Assembly: GCA_964369695.1 (NCBI GenBank)
Contig: CAYJGL010000001.1
Location: forward strand, 123,450-187,449
Reading direction: 5' to 3'
Length of the DNA stretch: 64,000 nt
Source: an uncultured Clostridium sp.
GTDB lineage: Bacteria > Bacillota > Clostridia > TANB77 > CAG-508
Below the pieces are notes generated by a model. The model saw only the letters and a list, made by a program, of their open reading frames with translations. It ran no database searches and was not told the DNA's origin. Within the stretch, counting starts at the first letter, position 1, and each line of letters begins with the position of its first letter. This document shows, one piece after another, positions 3,223 to 60,933 of the stretch. Both the position numbers and the translations under genes were made by a program.

Positions 3223-3924
3223 TTAAATTATAGTAGCTAATATTTTGGAAATATCATAAGATTGTTCTTGAAATAATTCCCATATTTCTCCTAATTTATT
3301 TTGCTCAAATATCTTACCATAATTTTCATCTGATAATAAATCTTCAACATTTGAACGTATAGCTAATGGGAAATTTATATGTTCTATTAATTGATGCATA
3401 ATAATAGTTTTAGTTCCAAAAACAATAGCTTCTTCTTCATTAACAGATTCAGAGATAATGATATCACCTGCTATTTGTCTTACTGATGATAAATATTTAT
3501 TTTCTCGTTGTTCTTGAGTTAAAGAATAATAATTATTATTAATAAATTCATTAATTATTCTTTTTGCAGAATTATATAAAAAATCATCACTCTCATTTAA
3601 AGAGTTCTCTTGAAATCCATATAACTTAGGTTTTATATTTAAATGTTCATATAATTGTTTCGTTGTAGTTAACATATTTGCTAATAAATGATTAATAGAA
3701 TCTTTATATTCTTCATTTAAATTTTCAAACATAACTTTATAAAACATTGTATCTAATTTTATTTTATTTTCAAAAAAATCATCATGATATTCTTCAAATA
3801 TTTGTTTTTGAAAATGCCGTTTATAATCTATATTCTCTTCAACCACTTTATTATTATCATTTATTCTTTGCAATGCCCCTTGGGCTGTTGATGCTAATTT
3901 TATTCTATTTTGCAAATCAAACAT
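3223..3924 (-). CDS. Hypothetical protein
   Basis: 233-aa ORF tightly packed in the minus-strand block. No motif recognised. Confidence 0.75.
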   Translation of the reverse strand: MFDLQNRIKLASTAQGALQRINDNNKVVEENIDYKRHFQKQIFEEYHDDFFENKIKLDTMFYKVMFENLNEEYKDSINHLLANMLTTTKQLYEHLNIKPKLYGFQENSLNESDDFLYNSAKRIINEFINNNYYSLTQEQRENKYLSSVRQIAGDIIISESVNEEEAIVFGTKTIIMHQLIEHINFPLAIRSNVEDLLSDENYGKIFEQNKLGEIWELFQEQSYDISKILATII

Positions 3925-9074: not shown

Positions 9075-9092
9075 TTATATCTATATTTTTTT
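9075..9092 (-). promoter_or_regulatory. Promoter-like motif AAAAAAATATAGATATAA
   Basis: Read on the minus strand. Lies 27 nt upstream of ATG 9047, directly after the terminator hairpin. Confidence 0.4.
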
Positions 9093-14582: not shown

Positions 14583-15686
14583 TTAATGTTTTAATGCTCT
14601 AATTAAACATCCTTCAGATACTGCTGTTAATGGATTATTAGCATGTCGTATTTCTGAAATTTCGAATGGAAATTCATATGAATTAAATTCATTTATAAAT
14701 ATGTCTAAAAATCCTTTAGCTTTTGATGTTCCACCACTAATAATGACTGGGATTTTGTCAGGAAAAGCTATATCTATCTTCTCTAATTTTTTAACTATAT
14801 GATCTATTGTATACTTTATTAAATCATTATAATAATAAGATAGTGCTTCTCTTATTCTTCTTTCTTTTTTATTAGAAGTTATAAAATTAGAAATATCAAA
14901 ATCATCTTTCTCTTTAACCAAAGTAACCCGATTACTGACTAATCCAGCAATATGAGATGACGTTTGTTCATCTATCCAATCACCTCCTCTAGCTAAAGAA
15001 AAATTAGAAACTTCTACTCCTTTAAATACGATTGCTATATTTGTCATACCAGCACCAAATGATATTCCAATACCAGTAAAATCTGAATTTTGACATTCAG
15101 AATAAATCAAAGAAACAGCTTCATATAATGGTAGAGGTTTATAATTTAATTGTTCAATTATTCTACTAAATACATTTTTATGAAATAAAACATTCATATC
15201 AACATCTATAGGATTAGCAGGTATACTATAACAACAAATAGAATTAGGATTAGTAGAATTTCCTATTAAAGCTCCTATAATAACTGATAATATATCTATA
15301 GAATCTATTTCTGAATTACTAATCATTCCTTTAGACATTGGTCTAGAAACTTGTTGTCCGAATATATTACCAAATATATAAGCATCTTCTGATAAAATAT
15401 ATGTACTGTCATCAATAACGGTATGAGAAATAGTACTCAAATCTCTTGTTCCTAACGAATCTGTATCTACTTTTAAAAAAACATTTCTAAAACTATGAGT
15501 AGATATTTTATTATCAGCTAAATTTTTTGCCATAACGATATTCATAGTTCCTATATCTAAACCTATATTATTAGATATAACAGAAGTATCTTCAACAGAC
15601 ATAAAATCAATCTCCTTTAATGATGTTATTAAACTCTCAACTACTAATCCTATTGAATATTCAAATTGATCATAATCCATATTCAT
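14583..15686 (-). CDS. MreB-like actin-fold (ASKHA) ATPase
   Basis: Phosphate-1 GLDIGTMNIV; phosphate-2 GISFGAGMTNIAIV followed by ARGGDWIDEQ (compare MreB RIGGDRFDEA); adenosine motif VIISGGTSKAKGF; C-terminal ANNPLTAVSEGC (compare MreB AEDPLTCVARG). Confidence 0.75.
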   Translation of the reverse strand: MNMDYDQFEYSIGLVVESLITSLKEIDFMSVEDTSVISNNIGLDIGTMNIVMAKNLADNKISTHSFRNVFLKVDTDSLGTRDLSTISHTVIDDSTYILSEDAYIFGNIFGQQVSRPMSKGMISNSEIDSIDILSVIIGALIGNSTNPNSICCYSIPANPIDVDMNVLFHKNVFSRIIEQLNYKPLPLYEAVSLIYSECQNSDFTGIGISFGAGMTNIAIVFKGVEVSNFSLARGGDWIDEQTSSHIAGLVSNRVTLVKEKDDFDISNFITSNKKERRIREALSYYYNDLIKYTIDHIVKKLEKIDIAFPDKIPVIISGGTSKAKGFLDIFINEFNSYEFPFEISEIRHANNPLTAVSEGCLIRALKH

Positions 15687-21256: not shown

Positions 21257-24200
21257 TTATTTTATTTGTTTAGTATATATTTTCCATTCACCAATCGAAT
21301 GACCAGTTCCTCCTTCAGTTATAGAAGAATATCTACAAAGTCTATATCTATTATATTCATTGGTTATATTTTCTAAAGTAAATTCTTTAAGTACTAAATT
21401 TCCCCAAGTTTGAGGATCTGAAACATCATGAATTAAGTCCCAATTAACTCCATTATCTGGAGATGCATATAATCTCCACTTATTAAAACAAGGATGATTA
21501 TAATTGATTTGTTGAATAGAATATGAATATGGTTTAAACCGTATACTAAATTGAATATCTATGAATGGAGTATCCTTAATATTTGTCGGAGTATCCATAT
21601 GCCAACAATATGTATTTGATGTTGCTGTGTCAAATTTCTGTAAACTCCGATAAACCATATGTTGAGGATGTCCATGTTCAGCATTATATTCATACGTATA
21701 ACCATTTGGAGGAGTTTGTCCAGTCCAGGCAGGTAATATATCTTCTCCATTTTTATCATAAAAGAATATACTACCAAGAGTCTGACCTTCAATATCATAT
21801 ATCCAAATTTCATCATATTCAAAATCATAATCAAAATCTAATATCATTGAATGAGTTGCATCCCATTCTAATGAAGGTGCTATATTTAAAATTCCATCAG
21901 ATCCATCTCTTGTATAAGAATCATATAACAATACATATGTGTTTGTATTTGCAATTCTAGCTTTTAACTTATATTGATTGATAGTTTGTGCCAAATAACT
22001 CCCTCTTCTACAAATTTTAGCACTTTTAATAGATCTTGGGGATGGTATTGTTATTTTAAGAAATACAGTTTCTGAATTAAGACAGTTTCCTTGTTCATAC
22101 CAATCTTGATGATATGAACTAACATCTTTATTAAATGCTTTAAATGGATAATAATCAGTATTATACATGCTTGAAGCAGTTGCTCGTTGATAAATTTTCT
22201 GATCATTCCATTTTCCAGGAAGAGTATATGATAAAGTTTTATTAGTCATTTGACCTATAATATCATAAGCTTCATCCTGATATTCTGGTAATGGAACACC
22301 TTTAAATTCTAAAAATTTAGATTTTGATTGTTTTGTAAATATATTCCATTGACCAATAGCATGCCCTTCTCCACCTTCTAATGATGAATATCTTCTTAAT
22401 CTATACCTATTATATATATTTGTTATATTTTCTAATACAAAATTTTTAACTTCTAAATAATTCCAAGTTTGATGGTCAGAAACATCATGTATTAAGTCCC
22501 AATTAACTCCATTATCTGGAGATGCATATAATCTCCACTTATTAAAATTAGGATAATTTAAATCAGACTGTTGTAACGTATAAGAATACGGTTTAAATAA
22601 AGCATTAAAAATAATATCAATAAAAGGACTATATTCTGGCATTTTATCTTCTGAGTATGTTTTTGATCTTGTTGGTAATTGCCAAGATCTATTCGTTATA
22701 TGACCATCAGACAATATTCTCCAAGGTTTGAAATTAATATGATTTTGATAAGGATAACCTTCACATTCATATCCTTCTTCTAATTCCTCAGTAGTAAATC
22801 TTGGAAATATAGCCTTTCCATTATTATCATAAATATATATTCTGCTGATTAAACTGGTAGATATATCATATATATATATTTCATCAAATAATAAATCAGT
22901 AGGATTATACAATTCAAACTCTAAAGAGTCTTGGTTCCAAACTAAGTTTGAAGTTGTATTATTAAGTCCTTGATTTTCATAATTATTATATGTATCATAT
23001 AATAATATAAATTTAGAATATCCTAATGGTTTAGCTTTTACTCTAAATTGTCTTGGACTTCTATTATAATATGTTGATATTGTTGTTATCTTTAATTTTT
23101 TCAATATTTTAGGAATTGGTATTTTTAATCTAAAATAAGTGCAAGAATTATAAGTACCTAAACCATTTGCAGACCATAATGTATTATCATTATTATCAAA
23201 TGATTTAAATGGGGCAAAATCAATAAGATTAGCACCATCAATACTAGATGCTATAGTCTTTTGTTGAATAGGTAAATTTTCAAAATGACCATCAATAGTA
23301 TGTTCTAAAATATTAGAAAACATCATACCAATCATATTATAAATCTCTATAATAACTTCTGTACTTGGTGCTTTTGGATTAATATTTATTTGTTTAGTAA
23401 AAATCTTCCATTCACCAATAGAGAGATTAGAACCTCCTTCAGAAGTTGCATATCTTCTAAGTCTATATCTATTATACTCATTTGTTATATTTTCTAATAC
23501 AAATGTTTTTTCTACTAAATTTCCCCAAGTTTGAGGTTCTGAAACATCATGAATTAAGTCCCAATTAACTCCATTATCTGGAGATGCATATAATCTCCAC
23601 TTATTAAAACAAGGATGATTATAATTGATTTGTTGAATAGAATATGAATATGGTTTAAATCTTATATTAAATAAAATTTCTAGAAATGGTTCTACTTGAG
23701 AATTATGTGCATACCAACCACTATAAGATCCTGCGTTTGTAATTTTATTTAGAACGTTCCAAGTTTGCCAACCACTAGAACTGTACCATGGAAATATTTC
23801 ATATTCGTATCCAGATGGAGCAGATGAACTTGTCCATATAGGCAATATATCTTCATTATTTTCATCATAAAACCAAACACCAGTCATATGAGTAAATGAG
23901 ATGTCATAAAACCATATTTCATTAAATGATAAATCATATTCATTATCTAAATCAAATATTTTAAATGCTTCAGAATTTTCCCAAATTATACTAGGAGATA
24001 TTTCCAAAATACCATCCGAACCATCTGAAGTATATGAATCATACAATAGCACGAATTTATCTAAATCTGGACTAAATCCTTTAACTCTAAACTGAAGTAT
24101 TCCATCTTCAGAATAATTTGCTAATTGCTGTATTTTTATTTTTTTAAATATTTTTGGATTAGGCAATTTAACCCACATATATGCCGTTTCTTGAAAATGA

Positions 24201-25888
24201 CTTCCATTTCCAACATACCAATTTTGATAATAACTACTGACATCTTTATTAAATGCCTTAAACGATGCATAATTTGAATTATAAATACCAGAAGATAATG
24301 CTCTTTGGTGAATTTTTTCATTATTCCATTTCCCAGAAATATTATAAGAATGAGTATTTGAAGACATTTTTCCAATAATATCATAAGCATCTTCTATAAA
24401 TAATAAAACATCAACAGATATTGTAAAAGGATTGAAATTATAATAATATTTAATAAAATTAGAAATTAGACATTGTCCAATATATTGTATTATATGATCT
24501 TTTTCTCTTGGTTCTTTATACATAACTTTACCAGATTCTATATTAGAAACATATATATTAGAAGAAACGGCATTACTATTTGTTTGTTTAGTATATATTT
24601 TCCATTCACCAATCGAATGACCAGTTCCTCCTTCAGTTATAGAAGAATATCTACAAAGTCTATATCTATTATATTCATTGGTTATATTTTCTAAAGTAAA
24701 TTCTTTAAGTACTAAATTTCCCCAAGTTTGAGGATCTGAAACATCATGTATTAAGTCCCAATTAACTCCATTATCTGGAGATGCATATAGTCTCCACTTA
24801 TTAAAACAAGGATGATTATGATTAACTTGTTGAATTGAATAAGAATGTGGTTTAAACATTATACTAAATTGAATATCTAGGAATGGAGTATTCTTAATAT
24901 TTGTTGGAGTATCCATATGCCAACAATATGTATTTGATGTTGCTGTGTCAAATTTCTGTAAACTCCGATAAACCATATGTTGAGGATGTCCATGTTCAGC
25001 ATTATATTCATACGTATAACCATTTGGAGGAGTTTGTCCAGTCCAGGCAGGTAATATATCTTCTCCATTTTTATCATAAAAGAATATACTACCAAGAGTC
25101 TGACCTTCAATATCATATATCCAAATTTCATCATATTCAAAATCATAATCAAAATCTAATATCATTGAATGAGTTGCATCCCATTCTAATGAAGGTGCTA
25201 TATTTAAAATTCCATCAGATCCATCTCTTGTATAAGAATCATATAACAATACATATGTGTTTGTATTTGCAATTCTAGCTTTTAACTTATATTGATTGAT
25301 AGTTTGTGCCAAATAACTCCCTCTTCTACAAATTTTAGCACTTTTAATAGATCTTGGGGATGGTATTGTTATTTTAAGAAATACAGTTTCTGAATTAAGA
25401 CAGTTTCCTTGTTCATACCAATCTTGATGATATGAACTGACATCTTTATTAAATGCTTTAAATGGATAATAATTAGTACTATACATACTTGAAGCAGTTG
25501 CTCGTTGATAAATTTTCCGATCATCCCATTTTCCAGAAATAGTATGTTCTAAAGTTTTATTAGTCATTTGACCTATAATATCATACTCTTCTTCTGATTC
25601 TGGAGGTGTTCCCTCTTCAGTAGTAACAATATATCCAAATAATAGCAAGTCACAACGACTATTTGAAGATTTATTTTCTAAAGAAACAGCTCGTGCTGGC
25701 ATTTTTTCTGGATCAGATGATAATGCTTTCATCCATCGATTCAAAGGTATATCAAAATATAATATATCTCCTATAATAACAGATTCTCCAACTACACCAT
25801 GTGTATATAATCCTGAAGTATCATTTTCTGCTGTTATATTAAAATAATTATTGGACCCTTTTGTTAAAATATCAGAAATAAATTTCAT
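21257..25888 (-). CDS. Giant tail fibre / receptor-binding protein with four double discoidin-like units
   Basis: About 1543 aa. FNKWRLYASPDNGVNWDLIHDVS occurs four times, each followed by NEYNRYRL(R/C)RY...GG.G..IGEWKI(Y/F)TKQ. First and fourth units are nearly identical. Track start 25894 is TTG; ATG at 25888 follows GAGGA. Confidence 0.55.
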   Translation of the reverse strand: MKFISDILTKGSNNYFNITAENDTSGLYTHGVVGESVIIGDILYFDIPLNRWMKALSSDPEKMPARAVSLENKSSNSRCDLLLFGYIVTTEEGTPPESEEEYDIIGQMTNKTLEHTISGKWDDRKIYQRATASSMYSTNYYPFKAFNKDVSSYHQDWYEQGNCLNSETVFLKITIPSPRSIKSAKICRRGSYLAQTINQYKLKARIANTNTYVLLYDSYTRDGSDGILNIAPSLEWDATHSMILDFDYDFEYDEIWIYDIEGQTLGSIFFYDKNGEDILPAWTGQTPPNGYTYEYNAEHGHPQHMVYRSLQKFDTATSNTYCWHMDTPTNIKNTPFLDIQFSIMFKPHSYSIQQVNHNHPCFNKWRLYASPDNGVNWDLIHDVSDPQTWGNLVLKEFTLENITNEYNRYRLCRYSSITEGGTGHSIGEWKIYTKQTNSNAVSSNIYVSNIESGKVMYKEPREKDHIIQYIGQCLISNFIKYYYNFNPFTISVDVLLFIEDAYDIIGKMSSNTHSYNISGKWNNEKIHQRALSSGIYNSNYASFKAFNKDVSSYYQNWYVGNGSHFQETAYMWVKLPNPKIFKKIKIQQLANYSEDGILQFRVKGFSPDLDKFVLLYDSYTSDGSDGILEISPSIIWENSEAFKIFDLDNEYDLSFNEIWFYDISFTHMTGVWFYDENNEDILPIWTSSSAPSGYEYEIFPWYSSSGWQTWNVLNKITNAGSYSGWYAHNSQVEPFLEILFNIRFKPYSYSIQQINYNHPCFNKWRLYASPDNGVNWDLIHDVSEPQTWGNLVEKTFVLENITNEYNRYRLRRYATSEGGSNLSIGEWKIFTKQININPKAPSTEVIIEIYNMIGMMFSNILEHTIDGHFENLPIQQKTIASSIDGANLIDFAPFKSFDNNDNTLWSANGLGTYNSCTYFRLKIPIPKILKKLKITTISTYYNRSPRQFRVKAKPLGYSKFILLYDTYNNYENQGLNNTTSNLVWNQDSLEFELYNPTDLLFDEIYIYDISTSLISRIYIYDNNGKAIFPRFTTEELEEGYECEGYPYQNHINFKPWRILSDGHITNRSWQLPTRSKTYSEDKMPEYSPFIDIIFNALFKPYSYTLQQSDLNYPNFNKWRLYASPDNGVNWDLIHDVSDHQTWNYLEVKNFVLENITNIYNRYRLRRYSSLEGGEGHAIGQWNIFTKQSKSKFLEFKGVPLPEYQDEAYDIIGQMTNKTLSYTLPGKWNDQKIYQRATASSMYNTDYYPFKAFNKDVSSYHQDWYEQGNCLNSETVFLKITIPSPRSIKSAKICRRGSYLAQTINQYKLKARIANTNTYVLLYDSYTRDGSDGILNIAPSLEWDATHSMILDFDYDFEYDEIWIYDIEGQTLGSIFFYDKNGEDILPAWTGQTPPNGYTYEYNAEHGHPQHMVYRSLQKFDTATSNTYCWHMDTPTNIKDTPFIDIQFSIRFKPYSYSIQQINYNHPCFNKWRLYASPDNGVNWDLIHDVSDPQTWGNLVLKEFTLENITNEYNRYRLCRYSSITEGGTGHSIGEWKIYTKQIK
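21268..22275. repeat. About 1-kb intragenic direct repeat, copy 1 (fourth fibre unit)
   Basis: Near-identical to 24586-25593 at a constant offset of 3318 nt. The track shadow ORFs at 21559/24877 and 21583/24901 are almost identical. Confidence 0.85.
24586..25593. repeat. About 1-kb intragenic direct repeat, copy 2 (first fibre unit)
   Basis: See copy 1 (21268-22275). Confidence 0.85.
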
Positions 25889-25890
25889 AA

Positions 25891-26340
25891 TCAATCCTCA
25901 ATCATCTGTAAAACAAGTGGACTAAAATCAAAATATCCAACATTAGTTCCTAATGCTGTTCCTATTACTTGTTTAAATGAATTAGTAACAGGAACAATAT
26001 CTGTAGCTAAACCCAATTCAGTATCAGAAACGTAAATATAATTAGATGTAAAATTCCAATTATCATTTCTTATTGTTCCATTTTGTAATAATTTAATTGT
26101 AGAATCTACTAAACCATTTTCACAGGATATTGCTTTACAAGGTAATGTTTCTTGAATATTTGATTTAGCTAATTTCCATTTATTTAATTTAAAATCAAAA
26201 TATAAACATTGTCCAAAATAAACATCTTCTCCTAATAAGCCATCAACTATAAATCCACTATATTCAAGATTATTTGGAGCAACATTTACTCTTATTTTTG
26301 AATTAGGACCTAATGATTGTAAACTTCCTATTACTTTCAT
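25891..26340 (-). CDS. Small fibre-module protein sharing the fibre N-terminal anchor domain
   Basis: 149 aa. GEDVYFGQCLYFDFKLNKWKLAKSN..LPCKAIS aligns with GESVIIGDILYFDIPLNRWMKALSS..MPARAVS and GEDVKKGDLLYYDDNLKKYMKALSS..MPCRAIA of the two giant genes. Confidence 0.7.
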   Translation of the reverse strand: MKVIGSLQSLGPNSKIRVNVAPNNLEYSGFIVDGLLGEDVYFGQCLYFDFKLNKWKLAKSNIQETLPCKAISCENGLVDSTIKLLQNGTIRNDNWNFTSNYIYVSDTELGLATDIVPVTNSFKQVIGTALGTNVGYFDFSPLVLQMIED

Positions 26341-26387
26341 AATTTATCCTATTATTTTTATTAATTTCTTAAGTTCTTTTTATAATC

Positions 26388-26400
26388 AATATATAGATAT
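26388..26400 (+). promoter_or_regulatory. Promoter-like motif AATATATAGATAT
   Basis: About 75 nt upstream of ATG 26476 of the GC-rich island, oriented with the plus-strand genes. Confidence 0.35.
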
Positions 26401-26475
26401 TGTTTATAAAGGTATTAAGGTGGGATATTCCTATCTGAAGCATTTTGTGATATCTTAATTCTTTTGGAGGAACAT

Positions 26476-26670
26476 ATGTTCGGAAAGAAGAAGACGGATA
26501 CCAAGGATTTACTTCTTGGTGTGGCCGGCGGAGTTGCCGGCACTTTATTGGCCGTATGTGCGGCTGTCTTTTGGCAGGATGTTATTCCTACTGAAAGACA
26601 ACAATCACGGCAATCACGGCGGGAACGCCGCCGTGCAAATGGTAATGGCAACAACAGCAATACCCCATAG
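26476..26670 (+). CDS. Small single-pass membrane protein, YtxH-like N-terminus (tentative), in GC-rich island
   Basis: GGAGG 5 nt before ATG (track start 26464 is TTG). MFGKKKTDTKDLLLGVAGGVAGTLLAVCAAVFW followed by an Arg-rich tail RQQSRQSRRERRRAN. About 50 percent G+C against an AT-rich background. Confidence 0.65.
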   Translation: MFGKKKTDTKDLLLGVAGGVAGTLLAVCAAVFWQDVIPTERQQSRQSRRERRRANGNGNNSNTP

Positions 26671-26707
26671 TTGCCAAGGGAACGTCAACATCCCTCAATT
26701 TGTTGAC

Positions 26708-26745
26708 AAGAGGGGGACGTAAAACTCTCCCTTCTTTTATTCATT
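26708..26745 (+). terminator. Terminator/attenuator-like hairpin between the two island ORFs
   Basis: AAGAGGGGG (26708-26716) pairs with CTCCCTTCTT-type arm (26728-26736), including two G-U pairs. Followed by TTTAT. Confidence 0.35.
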
Positions 26746-26758
26746 TTAGGAGTCAAAT

Positions 26759-26863
26759 ATGCAAATCTATATCATTTATGCCTTATTTGCAGCGGCTGGG
26801 TCGGCTGCAACTGCTGGAATATTCAAGATATTCCGGCCAAAAAAGAGATGCTTCTTCTTTTAA
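26759..26863 (+). CDS. 34-aa hydrophobic peptide (MQIYIIYALFAAAGSAATAGIFKIFRPKKRCFFF)
   Basis: Not in track (too short). TAGGAG 6 nt before ATG at 26759, TAA at 26861-26863, followed by a strong terminator. One TM-like helix plus a basic tail. Confidence 0.5.
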   Translation: MQIYIIYALFAAAGSAATAGIFKIFRPKKRCFFF

Positions 26864-26875
26864 AAATATCAGAAA

Positions 26876-26916
26876 AAAGAGGAGATTTAAAAAAAAACCT
26901 CCTCTTTATTTTTTAT
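26876..26916. terminator. Bidirectional rho-independent terminator at a convergent junction
   Basis: 9-bp stem AAAGAGGAG (26876-26884) / CTCCTCTTT (26899-26907). T-runs follow on both strands. Confidence 0.7.
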
Positions 26917-45472: not shown

Positions 45473-46504
45473 TTATTTATAAAAATAATTTTCTAATATA
45501 TCATCATCCCACATATTTATCTGACATGTATATGGTCCGTAACCAATATGAGTTGGTTTTCTCAAATCAGGATTATTTTTAAATAAATATAAATCTTCTT
45601 CTCTCATGTAATTTATAAAATTTAAAAATATATAATCTGGTTCTAAAAATTCTATCATTCTTTTATATTGCATTTTACTAAATGTAAAAATTCTTCTAAC
45701 TTTATTAGTAACAGTAGTATATTCTTTTTCTAATTTCAAATCATCCCAAGATAATTCTATACTATCATCATAAGTTGGGCCACTCGTTCCTATAATTTTA
45801 CCATTTTTATCTGTAGGATTAGCAACTCTAATAGGATATGTTCGAACTGTTGTTATACACGATCCCATATATTTTGGATGCAAACACAAATCTGCCAATA
45901 CAGCACTTGGTATAACATCAACAGAAGTGCAATATGGATAAGATAATCCACTATTAATACCCAAATCAAATCCTTGACCAGTTTCAACTAATATATTTAA
46001 ATCTAAATCTAAATATTCTTTTAAATTAAATGATTTTTGTATAAATCTTTTTAAAGCTGGAGTATTCTCTGCTAATGGATTGGTTCTTAAAATTTTACTT
46101 GAACGAGCAGAACCACTACCAGATAATGTACTTCCAATATTTGTAAGAATATTATTTTCTGCTAGTTTATCATTATTTTCAATAACGGCAATTCTTGGAT
46201 GAAGTATGATTCTATCTTCATCTATATCAAATTTTTTAATTTCATGGAGAAATAAATCAACATCAATAACACATCCAGCAGACATGTATATTGTTGATCT
46301 TGGTTGTATAATTGCAGTTACTGGAATTAGTTTTGTTATATATTTTATATCATTATAATAAAAAGTATGTCCAGCATTTGGAGATAATCTTCCTACAACA
46401 ATATCAATATGATAATTTTCAGCTATATATGCTGCCATTAAACCTTTTCCTGTACTTCCAAATTGGCCATCAATAATCATATTTGCTTTGCCTGATTGGA
46501 TCAT
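45473..46504 (-). CDS. Adenylosuccinate synthetase family protein, short archaeal/PurZ-like form
   Basis: DGQFGSTGKG (PurA GTQWGDEGKG), SPNAGHT (NAGHT), GSTLSGSGSARSSK (GTTGRGIGPAYEDK), VETGQGFDLGINSGLSYPYCTS ([22 protein letters not shown]), TTVTNKVRR (GATTGRRRR). 343 aa. Track start 46528 is TTG; ATG at 46504. Confidence 0.7.
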   Translation of the reverse strand: MIQSGKANMIIDGQFGSTGKGLMAAYIAENYHIDIVVGRLSPNAGHTFYYNDIKYITKLIPVTAIIQPRSTIYMSAGCVIDVDLFLHEIKKFDIDEDRIILHPRIAVIENNDKLAENNILTNIGSTLSGSGSARSSKILRTNPLAENTPALKRFIQKSFNLKEYLDLDLNILVETGQGFDLGINSGLSYPYCTSVDVIPSAVLADLCLHPKYMGSCITTVRTYPIRVANPTDKNGKIIGTSGPTYDDSIELSWDDLKLEKEYTTVTNKVRRIFTFSKMQYKRMIEFLEPDYIFLNFINYMREEDLYLFKNNPDLRKPTHIGYGPYTCQINMWDDDILENYFYK

Positions 46505-46528
46505 TGATTTATTTCTCCATTTGATCAA

Positions 46529-55696: not shown

Positions 55697-55726
55697 TTTA
55701 AAATCCTTATGTTTTTTTGATATTCA

Positions 55727-55740
55727 ATATATAGATATAT
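55727..55740 (+). promoter_or_regulatory. Promoter-like motif ATATATAGATATAT
   Basis: 33 nt upstream of ATG 55774. Confidence 0.35.
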
Positions 55741-55773
55741 GATATAAACATTTAACCCACAAAGGAGGCACTT

Positions 55774-55977
55774 ATGTGGGATTGGTTTAAAAATCTTGGT
55801 CGGCCTAAAAAGCCGACAAACATTGATTACCTGAACGCAATATTAGATCGCGTTCAGGTAGAAATGACAGTAGACCAACATGGATTAGTTGGTCCAGTCA
55901 AAATAGTTATAGGAAAAAAAGATGTTACAACCAACACCGTTGATACAACAATATCAACGGAAGCAACGGAAGATTAA
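55774..55977 (+). CDS. 67-aa ORF in GC-richer island; may be coding, a structured RNA, or both
   Basis: AAAGGAGG 5 nt before ATG and a promoter-like motif upstream support coding. Four strong hairpins inside the ORF argue for RNA/DNA structure (see the hairpin-cluster feature at 55799-55960). Confidence 0.45.
   Translation: MWDWFKNLGRPKKPTNIDYLNAILDRVQVEMTVDQHGLVGPVKIVIGKKDVTTNTVDTTISTEATED
55799..55960 (+). other. Cluster of four consecutive hairpins (possible structured RNA or protein-binding palindromes)
   Basis: H1: GTCGGC/GCCGAC, 55799-55817. H2: TACCTGAACGC/GCGTTCAGGTA, 55828-55860, 11 bp perfect. H3: GACCAAC/GTTGGTC, 55873-55894. H4: CCGTTGATA/TATCAACGG, 55937-55960, 9 bp perfect. 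Confidence 0.6.
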
Positions 55978-55979
55978 AC

Positions 55980-56031
55980 TTTTTAGAAGATGAAAAATAT
56001 ATTATAATTTTTTCATCTTCTAAAAATTTTT
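55980..56031. terminator. Bidirectional rho-independent terminator at a convergent junction
   Basis: 18-bp stem TTTTTAGAAGATGAAAAA (55980-55997) / TTTTTCATCTTCTAAAAA (56009-56026), followed by TTTTTATTT. Confidence 0.8.
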
Positions 56032-56834: not shown

Positions 56835-56862
56835 ATAAAATAAAATTAGAAAGGATAATTTG

Positions 56863-60465: not shown

Positions 60466-60933
60466 ATGTATAAATTTATAAATTCACATAAGATCGGTTT
60501 AGATTATCTATCAAAGTATGATGCAAGGTTAATAGAAGAACCGACAAAAGAAATTAAATTAGAATACCCAAATAGCAACAAATATATAAAATATAAAGAT
60601 CTTCAATTTATAAATTTCGATATGATTTTTCAATTATATTATAATTTATTTCATATTAGGCTAAATGATAATAATAATAAAATACATTGTTGTTTAAATA
60701 GACCTTTATGTTTATTATCATATTCAGAAATGGATATAGATGAAATATCTAGAATTGTAGGAGAAAGTATAACTATGATTCATCCATTTCCAGATGGTAA
60801 TAAAAGAATGGCATATTTATGTACAAATTTATTTCTTAAAATAAATAATTTAAATTTATATAAAGATCATATAAAATTGTGCAATATGATAATTTATTAT
60901 TCATCAAATCAACGCGAAAAAATCAGGAATTAA
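60466..60933 (+). CDS. Doc-type Fic-fold protein (death-on-curing toxin-like kinase)
   Basis: HPFPDGNKRMAYLCTNLFL matches the Doc variant of the Fic motif H-x-F-x-(D/N)-(A/G)-N-K-R (P1 Doc HIFNDANKRTAL). 155 aa, AAGGA SD. Confidence 0.7.
   Translation: MYKFINSHKIGLDYLSKYDARLIEEPTKEIKLEYPNSNKYIKYKDLQFINFDMIFQLYYNLFHIRLNDNNNKIHCCLNRPLCLLSYSEMDIDEISRIVGESITMIHPFPDGNKRMAYLCTNLFLKINNLNLYKDHIKLCNMIIYYSSNQREKIRN

Follow-up and report, generated by a model that had tools for sequence, protein, structure and literature searches.

What does a short G+C-rich patch encode, if anything, amid the long AT-rich operons of an uncultured phage? We addressed this question in a 64-kb stretch of contig CAYJGL010000001.1 (hereafter the window, meaning the whole stretch analysed), which is taken from a phage sequence of 263,784 bp in the NCBI record. 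This length makes the source a jumbo phage; it is probably virulent. The patch, referred to here as the island, occupies a 576-bp gap between two minus-strand genes that encode proteins of 149 and 169 amino acids (aa). We conclude that the island is a real, self-contained, unannotated and orphan accessory cassette that resembles a moron. From its sequence, two tiny membrane peptides, specified by open reading frames ORF1 and ORF2, are most likely made from a hairpin-rich messenger RNA (mRNA). We give about an even chance to the fuller reading, in which the island forms an accessory unit that is transcribed independently and whose structured mRNA is long-lived, throttled in translation or both, and yields two single-pass membrane peptides.

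The composition of the island sets it apart from the rest of the window. Positions 26470–26860 have a G+C content of 45.8%, compared with 24.3% for the window as a whole, and the remaining 391-nt segments have a mean of 0.242 ± 0.037 and do not exceed 0.358, which places the island at +5.9 standard deviations (SD). The highest value over 200 nt is 0.515 (51.5%), at 26500–26699, and every other 400-nt bin has a G+C of at most 0.325, making the island unique in the 64 kb. The earlier note on this DNA had estimated roughly 50% G+C, a figure that describes the peak of a real island but slightly overstates the segment as a whole. The odd composition is limited to the transcribed body, from the first Shine–Dalgarno sequence to the stop codon of ORF2, and includes the 88-nt non-coding spacer between the two ORFs (G+C 41%). 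The flanks on the promoter side (0.22 over 26341–26475) and on the terminator side are AT-rich and native-like. All ORFs of at least 90 aa across 1099–50752 lie on the minus strand, so that the island, which reads on the plus strand, is indeed oriented against its neighbours, as had been proposed; it is embedded among ~50 kb of minus-strand genes, at the boundary between two minus-strand operons.

The island is bounded by transcription signals of its own. A divergent regulatory cassette between the island and the 149-aa gene contains the 15-mer TCAATATATAGATAT (26386–26400), which includes the core TATAGATAT at 26392–26400. By chance, 0.009 copies of the 15-mer would be expected per window; two were found, both on the plus strand, at 26386–26400 and 55724–55738. 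Around these two copies, the segments 26359–26418 and 55697–55756 are identical at 43 of 60 positions, compared with 36 of 60 for the runner-up in the window. The core alone has 11 exact sites in the window, where intergenic DNA accounts for ~8% of the sequence; seven of the 11 point at a Shine–Dalgarno sequence and start codon 17–75 nt downstream, and five of these seven sit 29–53 nt upstream of them. The promoter-like motif suspected in the earlier note is therefore real and recurrent, and TATAGATAT is likely a phage-specific promoter element, judging by its placement. Its near-palindromic core may serve both divergent genes. No sigma-70-like promoter was found upstream of ORF1, and a sigma-70-type scan returned 9 promoter-like sites against 10.3 expected by chance. 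The gene-directed sites lie at 9077, 16500, 17330, 26392, 55102, 55730 and 56821, often preceded by an A-run, and TATAGATAT also stands at the head of an array of small plus-strand genes, very rich in A+T, whose start is at 56860.

Two hairpins with terminator character follow. The first, between the ORFs, has an energy of −10.2 kcal/mol over 26710–26733 and is kept in every suboptimal and constrained fold. An attenuator switch between the ORFs was therefore rejected, as no competing antiterminator fold exists; of the attenuator-like hairpin proposed earlier, the terminator-like stem and its T-run stand, and the antiterminator alternative does not. The second hairpin, at the end of the island, has an energy of −12.4 kcal/mol on the plus strand, with one internal mismatch, and is followed by TTTATTTTTTATTT. 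An A-run and a T-run flank its stem, in agreement with the bidirectional terminator described before, and the terminator program lists it for the minus strand. The hairpin is common to the island and the convergent 169-aa gene (stop codon 26917–26919) and, as far as its sequence indicates, probably serves that gene at least as well as the island.

Both ORFs match the earlier quotation exactly, each beginning with ATG and led by an optimal Shine–Dalgarno sequence (AGGAG at 26748–26752 for ORF2) at a spacing of 5–6 nt. Most phage genes carry AGGA or GGAG ribosome-binding sites, indicating that the host uses Shine–Dalgarno sequences, and both island ORFs are alike in this respect. Together the ORFs take up the room from the promoter to the internal terminator and from there to the final one. 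Each ORF contains one hydrophobic stretch of 19–22 residues flanked by basic residues, and the best 19-aa Kyte–Doolittle windows score 2.17 for ORF1 and 1.70 for ORF2, which upholds the proposed membrane-peptide architecture of one helix per ORF. In ORF1, G+C at the three codon positions is.57/.49/.46, and two tandem repeats, one of 12 nt and one of 9 nt, run in frame and encode GVAG-GVAG and QSR-QSR. A lipoprotein signal was considered for ORF1 and rejected: residues 25–28 read L-A-V-C and fail the lipobox [LVI][ASTVI][GAS]C, which needs A, G or S before the cysteine, whereas Val stands at −1 of Cys28. Because of this misfit, and because hydrophobic residues continue past the cysteine, a membrane helix is likelier. 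Among 3000 dinucleotide-preserving shuffles of 26440–26915, a single ORF with a Shine–Dalgarno sequence, ATG and hydrophobic segment arose in 0.9%, and two in tandem arose in 0/3000. This result weakens any explanation in terms of a purely non-coding RNA.

The hairpin density of the island is a feature absent from the earlier note. The z-score of the folding energy is −7.9 on the plus strand and −9.1 on the minus strand for the transcript-sized segment 26440–26915, and −7.6 and −6.7, respectively, for the G+C-rich core 26476–26863, whereas 14 phage segments of equal length gave −0.63 ± 1.1 with a minimum of −2.65. In the predicted fold, some ten local hairpins follow one another through ORF1, the spacer and ORF2 (26498–26837), on mostly perfect stems of 6–15 bp; both Shine–Dalgarno sequences are partly paired in this fold. 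The stems made of G and C only that had been singled out by eye are present as quoted, namely CACGGCGG/CCGCCGTG at 26615–26635 and the GCCGGC stems at 26524–26541. When synonymous codons were permuted with the protein and the codon counts kept (n = 300), the native ORF1 folded at −72.8 kcal/mol compared with −59.0 ± 4.0 kcal/mol for the permuted sequences (z = −3.4), and its energy was reached by 0/300; the corresponding z for ORF2 was −2.3. The placement of synonymous codons thus adds to the hairpin density. Predicted paired positions are richer in G+C than unpaired ones, and unpaired third positions still have 34% G+C compared with 11% in the phage, so structure accounts for part of the G+C excess and not the whole.

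These properties also bring in a rival explanation, that the island yields a structured RNA which either does not code at all or has a dual function with the RNA part foremost, and that its ORFs are incidental; we consider it unlikely. Where the genomic G+C at third codon positions (GC3) is 11%, only selection for base-pairing would, on this account, hold 46% G+C, and it would explain why the non-coding spacer is G+C-rich too, why synonymous positions are arranged for pairing and why the fold departs so far from the phage controls. A second unit in the window, described below, bears the same signature, and gene callers skipped the island. G+C-rich structured RNA genes of AT-rich genomes indeed share with it a sharp G+C peak, a strongly negative fold z and a position in a non-annotated gap. 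However, the island differs from them in belonging to no family, in forming a simple chain of local hairpins rather than a multi-junction fold and in having good coding signals. The covariance models of Rfam 15 gave no match at the gathering score anywhere in the window, and on the island itself no family emerged even at E ≤ 10, where the matches were terminator-driven noise (E ≥ 0.09); ARAGORN detected no tRNA or tmRNA. The two strands fold almost equally well, pairing alone is insufficient for the composition of the unpaired third positions, and the tandem arrangement of two canonical single-pass ORFs is the pattern that the shuffles never reproduced.

The second unit, overlooked in the earlier note, lies at 55.7 kb. 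It opens with the same promoter cassette, which adjoins the start of a minus-strand gene as it does at the island, and it continues with a Shine–Dalgarno sequence and an ORF for a 67-aa soluble protein. The NCBI source record includes this ORF among its gene calls, as a singleton cluster. The unit has a G+C of 37.7% (0.377), a GC3 of 0.294 and a codon score of −1.14. Its structure is even more pronounced than that of the island, the fold z being −6.0 in the ORF and −10.5 over the whole unit. Synonymous permutation of its ORF gave z = −5.2, the native energy being reached by 0/300, whereas the same permutation on seven native small phage genes gave values from +0.63 to −2.19. Rfam searches of the unit returned weak matches only (E 0.06 and 0.21), far under the gathering scores. 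Since this sister unit shares the cassette, the raised G+C and the hyper-structure, the island is not a one-off: the phage holds at least two small, antisense-embedded, hyper-structured units of raised G+C under one promoter cassette.

The hyper-structured coding sequence common to both units is an unusual property and the more interesting lead. We tentatively raise the idea, doubtful as it is, of a class of hyper-structured mini-genes that stand alone behind a shared divergent cassette, lie antisense within long operons, have a GC3 two to four times the genomic value and have synonymous sites shaped into perfect hairpins. If such a class exists, RNA structure itself would be selected and the peptides would be half the story; the transcripts could thereby withstand a nuclease that removes AU-rich RNA, be shielded from antisense read-through or function both as RNA and through their peptides. 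In a genome with 11% GC3, two units with hairpin-organised synonymous sites stand out cleanly, and they would provide a compact test case of mRNA structure versus horizontal transfer as the driver of phage G+C islands.

The reading of the island as an accessory unit for two membrane peptides is backed by the promoter element upstream of seven genes and by the cassette common to a second unit. It is also favoured by the ORF anatomy, the Shine–Dalgarno sequences, the shuffle result, the in-frame repeats, the structure beyond what the protein sequence dictates and the tail context. The last consists of a PAAR protein, a protein with five PKD domains, a 1545-aa protein with F5/8-type-C repeats and a tail-fibre-like 128-aa protein; these fit a tail-fibre/spike region, consistent with the tail-fibre/baseplate setting assigned earlier. 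Several observations weigh against this reading. GC3 is 0.46 in ORF1 and 0.43 in ORF2, compared with 0.109 ± 0.025 in 66 phage ORFs, and the mean ln P(codon given aa) under phage usage is −1.71 and −1.46, respectively, compared with −0.61 ± 0.066 for phage ORFs, so that codon usage in the island lies 13–17 SD away from that of the phage. Among ~15 billion proteins, no homologue of either peptide was found. The gene calls of the source record omit ORF1, ORF2 and any alternative ORF in the island, yet they include the flanking genes. G+C excess combined with structure is the same signature that a non-coding structured RNA would be expected to leave in an AT-rich genome, and a specific function is suggested by positional analogy alone.

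The deviating composition had led the earlier note to propose recent acquisition from a G+C-richer donor, and the checks of sliding G+C and codon usage that it called for do bear out the deviation itself. A strict version of this proposal, in which the island is a recently captured foreign fragment with donor G+C not yet eroded and perhaps little or no function, appears improbable to us. Both ORFs and the spacer are far from the phage norm, six of the seven Arg codons in ORF1 are CGN (phage-wide, Arg is ~24% CGN and 71% AGA), and unpaired third positions keep a G+C excess. AT-rich native-like signals and a 7-nt direct repeat, TTCTTTT (26459–26465 and 26855–26861), bound the G+C-rich body; the repeat could be an insertion microhomology, although it is not significant in this AT-rich context (estimated chance p ~0.13). 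Against capture, BLAST-type and pattern searches yielded no donor or relative at the protein or DNA level, whether in the protein collection, 185,579 species genomes, plasmids, phages, viral sequences or metagenomes. A random foreign gene would not give z = −7.6 or synonymous-site structure, the unit runs on the phage's own promoter cassette, and the sister unit resembles the island in a milder way. Together with the synonymous-site result, this second unit weakens the explanation by recent transfer alone, and selection on structure explains the G+C excess at least as well.

The searches behind this statement covered each part of the island. For ORF1, no match was obtained in a word-indexed protein search, in scans of IMG/VR, GTDB genomes and JGI metagenomes or by tblastn against phages, and the three matches of an exhaustive phmmer search were dismissed because all were low-complexity stretches in Kazal-repeat or frame-shifted repeat proteins. 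For ORF2, back-translated patterns found nothing in IMG/VR and GTDB genomes, nor did tblastn against phages. The spacer hairpin pattern was unmatched in IMG/VR, and blastn of the island returned only its AT-rich leader, at low significance, from phages and nothing from plasmids. Neither peptide has a significant match in Pfam, NCBIfam, PHROGs or PADLOC. The N-terminus of ORF1 had been called YtxH-like, a resemblance that was not sustained: Pfam YtxH gave no match, and the best family of small membrane proteins, DUF3042, stayed below its curated cut-off (E = 0.11; 12.8 bits, cut-off 25). The sole family match for ORF2 is a weak one, to phrog_10987 in PHROGs (E = 0.005).

Two small hydrophobic peptides could also be membrane-damaging effectors, either a type-I-toxin-like module, with a small hydrophobic toxin whose highly structured mRNA would be inefficiently translated and silenced by antisense RNA from the convergent late operon, or a holin/antiholin pair that times lysis; we regard this as distinctly unlikely. 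ORF2 (34 aa, one helix, basic C-terminus) and ORF1 (64 aa, a transmembrane-type segment with a charged C-terminal tail, as in holins) both fit toxins or small holins. The type I systems hok/sok, fst/RNAII, txpA/ratA and bsrG/SR4 likewise involve a hydrophobic peptide of 30–60 aa with a basic C-terminus, a structured mRNA and a terminator shared with convergent transcription. The partly paired Shine–Dalgarno sequences agree with this picture, and read-through at the terminator common with the 169-aa gene would yield antisense RNA. However, the island specifies a pair of peptides instead of a single one, a gene for an antisense RNA was not identified, the promoter signal for an antisense RNA is at chance level, and the described toxin and antitoxin families are unmatched in Rfam (E ≤ 10), Pfam, NCBIfam and PADLOC. 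The adjacent 169-aa protein is not supported as a lysin by Pfam, PHROGs, NCBIfam, a PDB sequence search or tblastn, and its AlphaFold model has a pLDDT of 34. Finally, the sister unit, with the same RNA style, encodes a soluble protein.

The near-equal stability on the two strands of hairpins that are mostly perfect Watson–Crick pairs, together with the exact placement of the island at an operon boundary, would also suit an element acting as DNA, which could signal replication or priming, be a hotspot of recombination or insulate the transcription of the two minus-strand operons. We hold this to be very improbable. The cumulative GC skew of the window does not shift at the island, iterated repeats were not found in it, the internal terminator is directional, and the pattern of ORFs, Shine–Dalgarno sequences and hydrophobic helices would be left unexplained.

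Returning to an accessory unit for two membrane peptides, the signals suggest the following course of expression. TATAGATAT in the 60-nt divergent cassette would start a plus-strand transcript at about 26405 that carries ORF1, for a single-pass membrane peptide with an Arg-rich tail. The partial terminator at 26710–26745 would end some transcripts, and longer ones, made by read-through, would include ORF2, for a second single-pass peptide, and stop at the shared terminator near 26910. The chain of hairpins could make the G+C-rich message long-lived, throttle its translation or both, and the peptides would insert in the host cytoplasmic membrane and act there as accessory factors. By analogy with the systems considered below, their role would most likely be to block the entry of further phage or otherwise to condition the envelope. 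Gene callers systematically overlook small membrane peptides, and did so here with both; in phages, such peptides often determine superinfection exclusion, the timing of lysis or the takeover of the host. It is therefore sensible to view a cassette that neighbours receptor-binding genes in an uncultured jumbo phage as a candidate for a role of this kind.

Comparison with described systems places the island as an orphan addition to the moron-like accessory units for small membrane peptides. It shows three of the four features that define morons, among them a deviating G+C (0.458 versus 0.243) and, at motif level, a promoter and terminator of its own (TATAGATAT; hairpins 26710–26733 and 26876–26907); the fourth defining feature is that related phages lack the unit between the corresponding adjacent genes. 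The assignment is partly supported. Gene 15 of phage HK97, a moron within the tail operon, specifies gp15, a small exclusion protein of the inner membrane (PMC3594210), and this gene resembles the island as a self-contained extra unit of deviating G+C in the tail gene region with a very small membrane product (PMC3594210). In contrast to the island, gene 15 belongs to a lambdoid prophage rather than a probably virulent 264-kb jumbo phage, the HK97-type moron promoter is of the host type rather than the phage's own recurrent element, and gp15 has a bacterial homologue, YebO, whereas the island peptides have none; the island also differs in its two peptides and hyper-structured mRNA.

The llp gene of phage T5 adjoins the gene for the receptor-binding protein and is expressed early (PMC9586334). 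T5 Llp, Cor and the lipoproteins encoded downstream of gpJ share with the island a small envelope-targeted product encoded beside receptor-binding or tail-tip genes as a separate unit (PMC9586334), but ORF1, with L25-A26-V27-C28, fails the lipobox expected of such exclusion lipoproteins, and there is no sequence similarity. The PeSL cassettes of T4-type phages are short promoter cassettes that recur by small, variable orphan genes in units bounded by terminator hairpins (PMC2839356, PMC4122927); the island's cassette is similar in kind but has two copies in 64 kb, another sequence and a divergent arrangement. The features of both units and of the flanking genes are collected in Table 1.

Table 1 Features of the island, its flanking genes and the sister unit (positions in the window)
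Feature	Position	Strand	Description
149-aa gene	25891–26340	minus	Own Shine–Dalgarno sequence and ATG (26340)
Divergent regulatory cassette	26359–26418		Separates the island from the start of the 149-aa gene; holds the 15-mer at 26386–26400
Inferred 5′ leader	26401–26475	plus	AT-rich; small hairpin; Shine–Dalgarno GGAGG at 26466–26470
ORF1	26476–26670	plus	64 aa; Lys-rich N-terminus, Gly/Ala-rich hydrophobic segment L12–W33 (22 residues), Arg-rich tail RQSRQSRRERRR
Local hairpins (predicted fold)	26498–26518, 26524–26541, 26550–26565, 26565–26600, 26615–26635	plus	In ORF1
Local hairpins (predicted fold)	26646–26676, 26684–26707, 26760–26791, 26787–26810, 26813–26837	plus	
Internal terminator-like hairpin	26710–26745	plus only	Stem GAGGGGGA/TCTCCCTT at 26710–26733, then T-rich CTTTTATTCATTTT
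ORF2	26759–26863	plus	34 aa, MQIYIIYALFAAAGSAATAGIFKIFRPKKRCFFF; single hydrophobic helix, then RPKKR
Final terminator hairpin	26873–26910 (stem 26876–26907)		AT-rich; A-run on one side, T-run on the other
169-aa gene	26917–27426	minus	Probably 161 aa from an internal ATG
Sister unit	55697–56026	plus	Promoter cassette, Shine–Dalgarno AAGGAGG, 67-aa soluble ORF, two-way terminator
Sister ORF	55774–55977	plus	67 aa, soluble product; orphan
Sister two-way terminator hairpin	55980–56026		Faces a convergent minus-strand 75-aa gene

Relatives of the locus were also sought through its flanking genes. These searches found none in IMG/VR and JGI metagenomes, a 20-kb megablast found none among phages, and INPHARED held no close relative, with a best helicase identity of 35%. 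In the protein database, the 149-aa gene matched only itself, whereas the 169-aa gene retrieved one truncated relative, a sequence of 28.8% G+C from Logan run SRR17165170 that keeps the gene order 205 aa/88 aa/PKD/173 aa. Its homologue of the 169-aa gene is 57% identical, and the sequence ends 33 nt beyond it; an equivalent island possibly lies past this end. Directly after the homologue, at 3226–3258 of the relative's own sequence, stands a terminal G+C-rich hairpin of 12 bp. The 169-aa protein and this homologue share conserved S-W-H...A-A-D and F/L-H-V-D motifs that look, by eye, like those of zinc peptidases of the LAS/M15 type.

Two trivial origins of the island were discarded. A split gene or an intron was rejected because the 169-aa gene ends as its homologue does and is followed by a terminator of its own, and the 149-aa gene starts from a separate Shine–Dalgarno sequence and ATG. 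An assembly chimera was rejected by reasoning alone, as it would need two junctions, both placed precisely inside the interval from a native promoter to a native terminator. A candidate second island at 28892–29141 (36% G+C) was likewise dismissed as an ordinary PAAR gene with a normal GC3 of 0.118; the PAAR-motif protein itself (84 aa, 28884–29138, minus strand) matches Pfam at E = 1e-4, below the curated cut-off. The 1545-aa F5/8-type-C protein (21257–25894, minus strand) consists of four repeats of ~380 aa, the first and last near-identical by eye, and contains duplicated nested ORFs about 3.3 kb apart; such repetition in a receptor-binding protein could cause recombination or assembly trouble.

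Further genes of the window characterise the phage. A 351-aa protein (45473–46528, minus strand) matches phrog_1211, which is adenylosuccinate-synthetase-like of the PurZ type, at E = 6e-55, a match that hints that the phage DNA may carry 2-aminoadenine for adenine. A 367-aa protein (14583–15686, minus strand) is an actin-family homologue that covers the full Pfam Volactin profile (PF25216, E = 3.5e-76). A Doc/Fic-like toxin domain (phrog_577, E = 3e-11) lies at 60466–60933 on the plus strand, within the plus-strand array of small genes, and an APS-kinase-like protein (33796–34317, minus strand, E = 3e-26) adjoins methyltransferase-like and glycosyltransferase-like genes.

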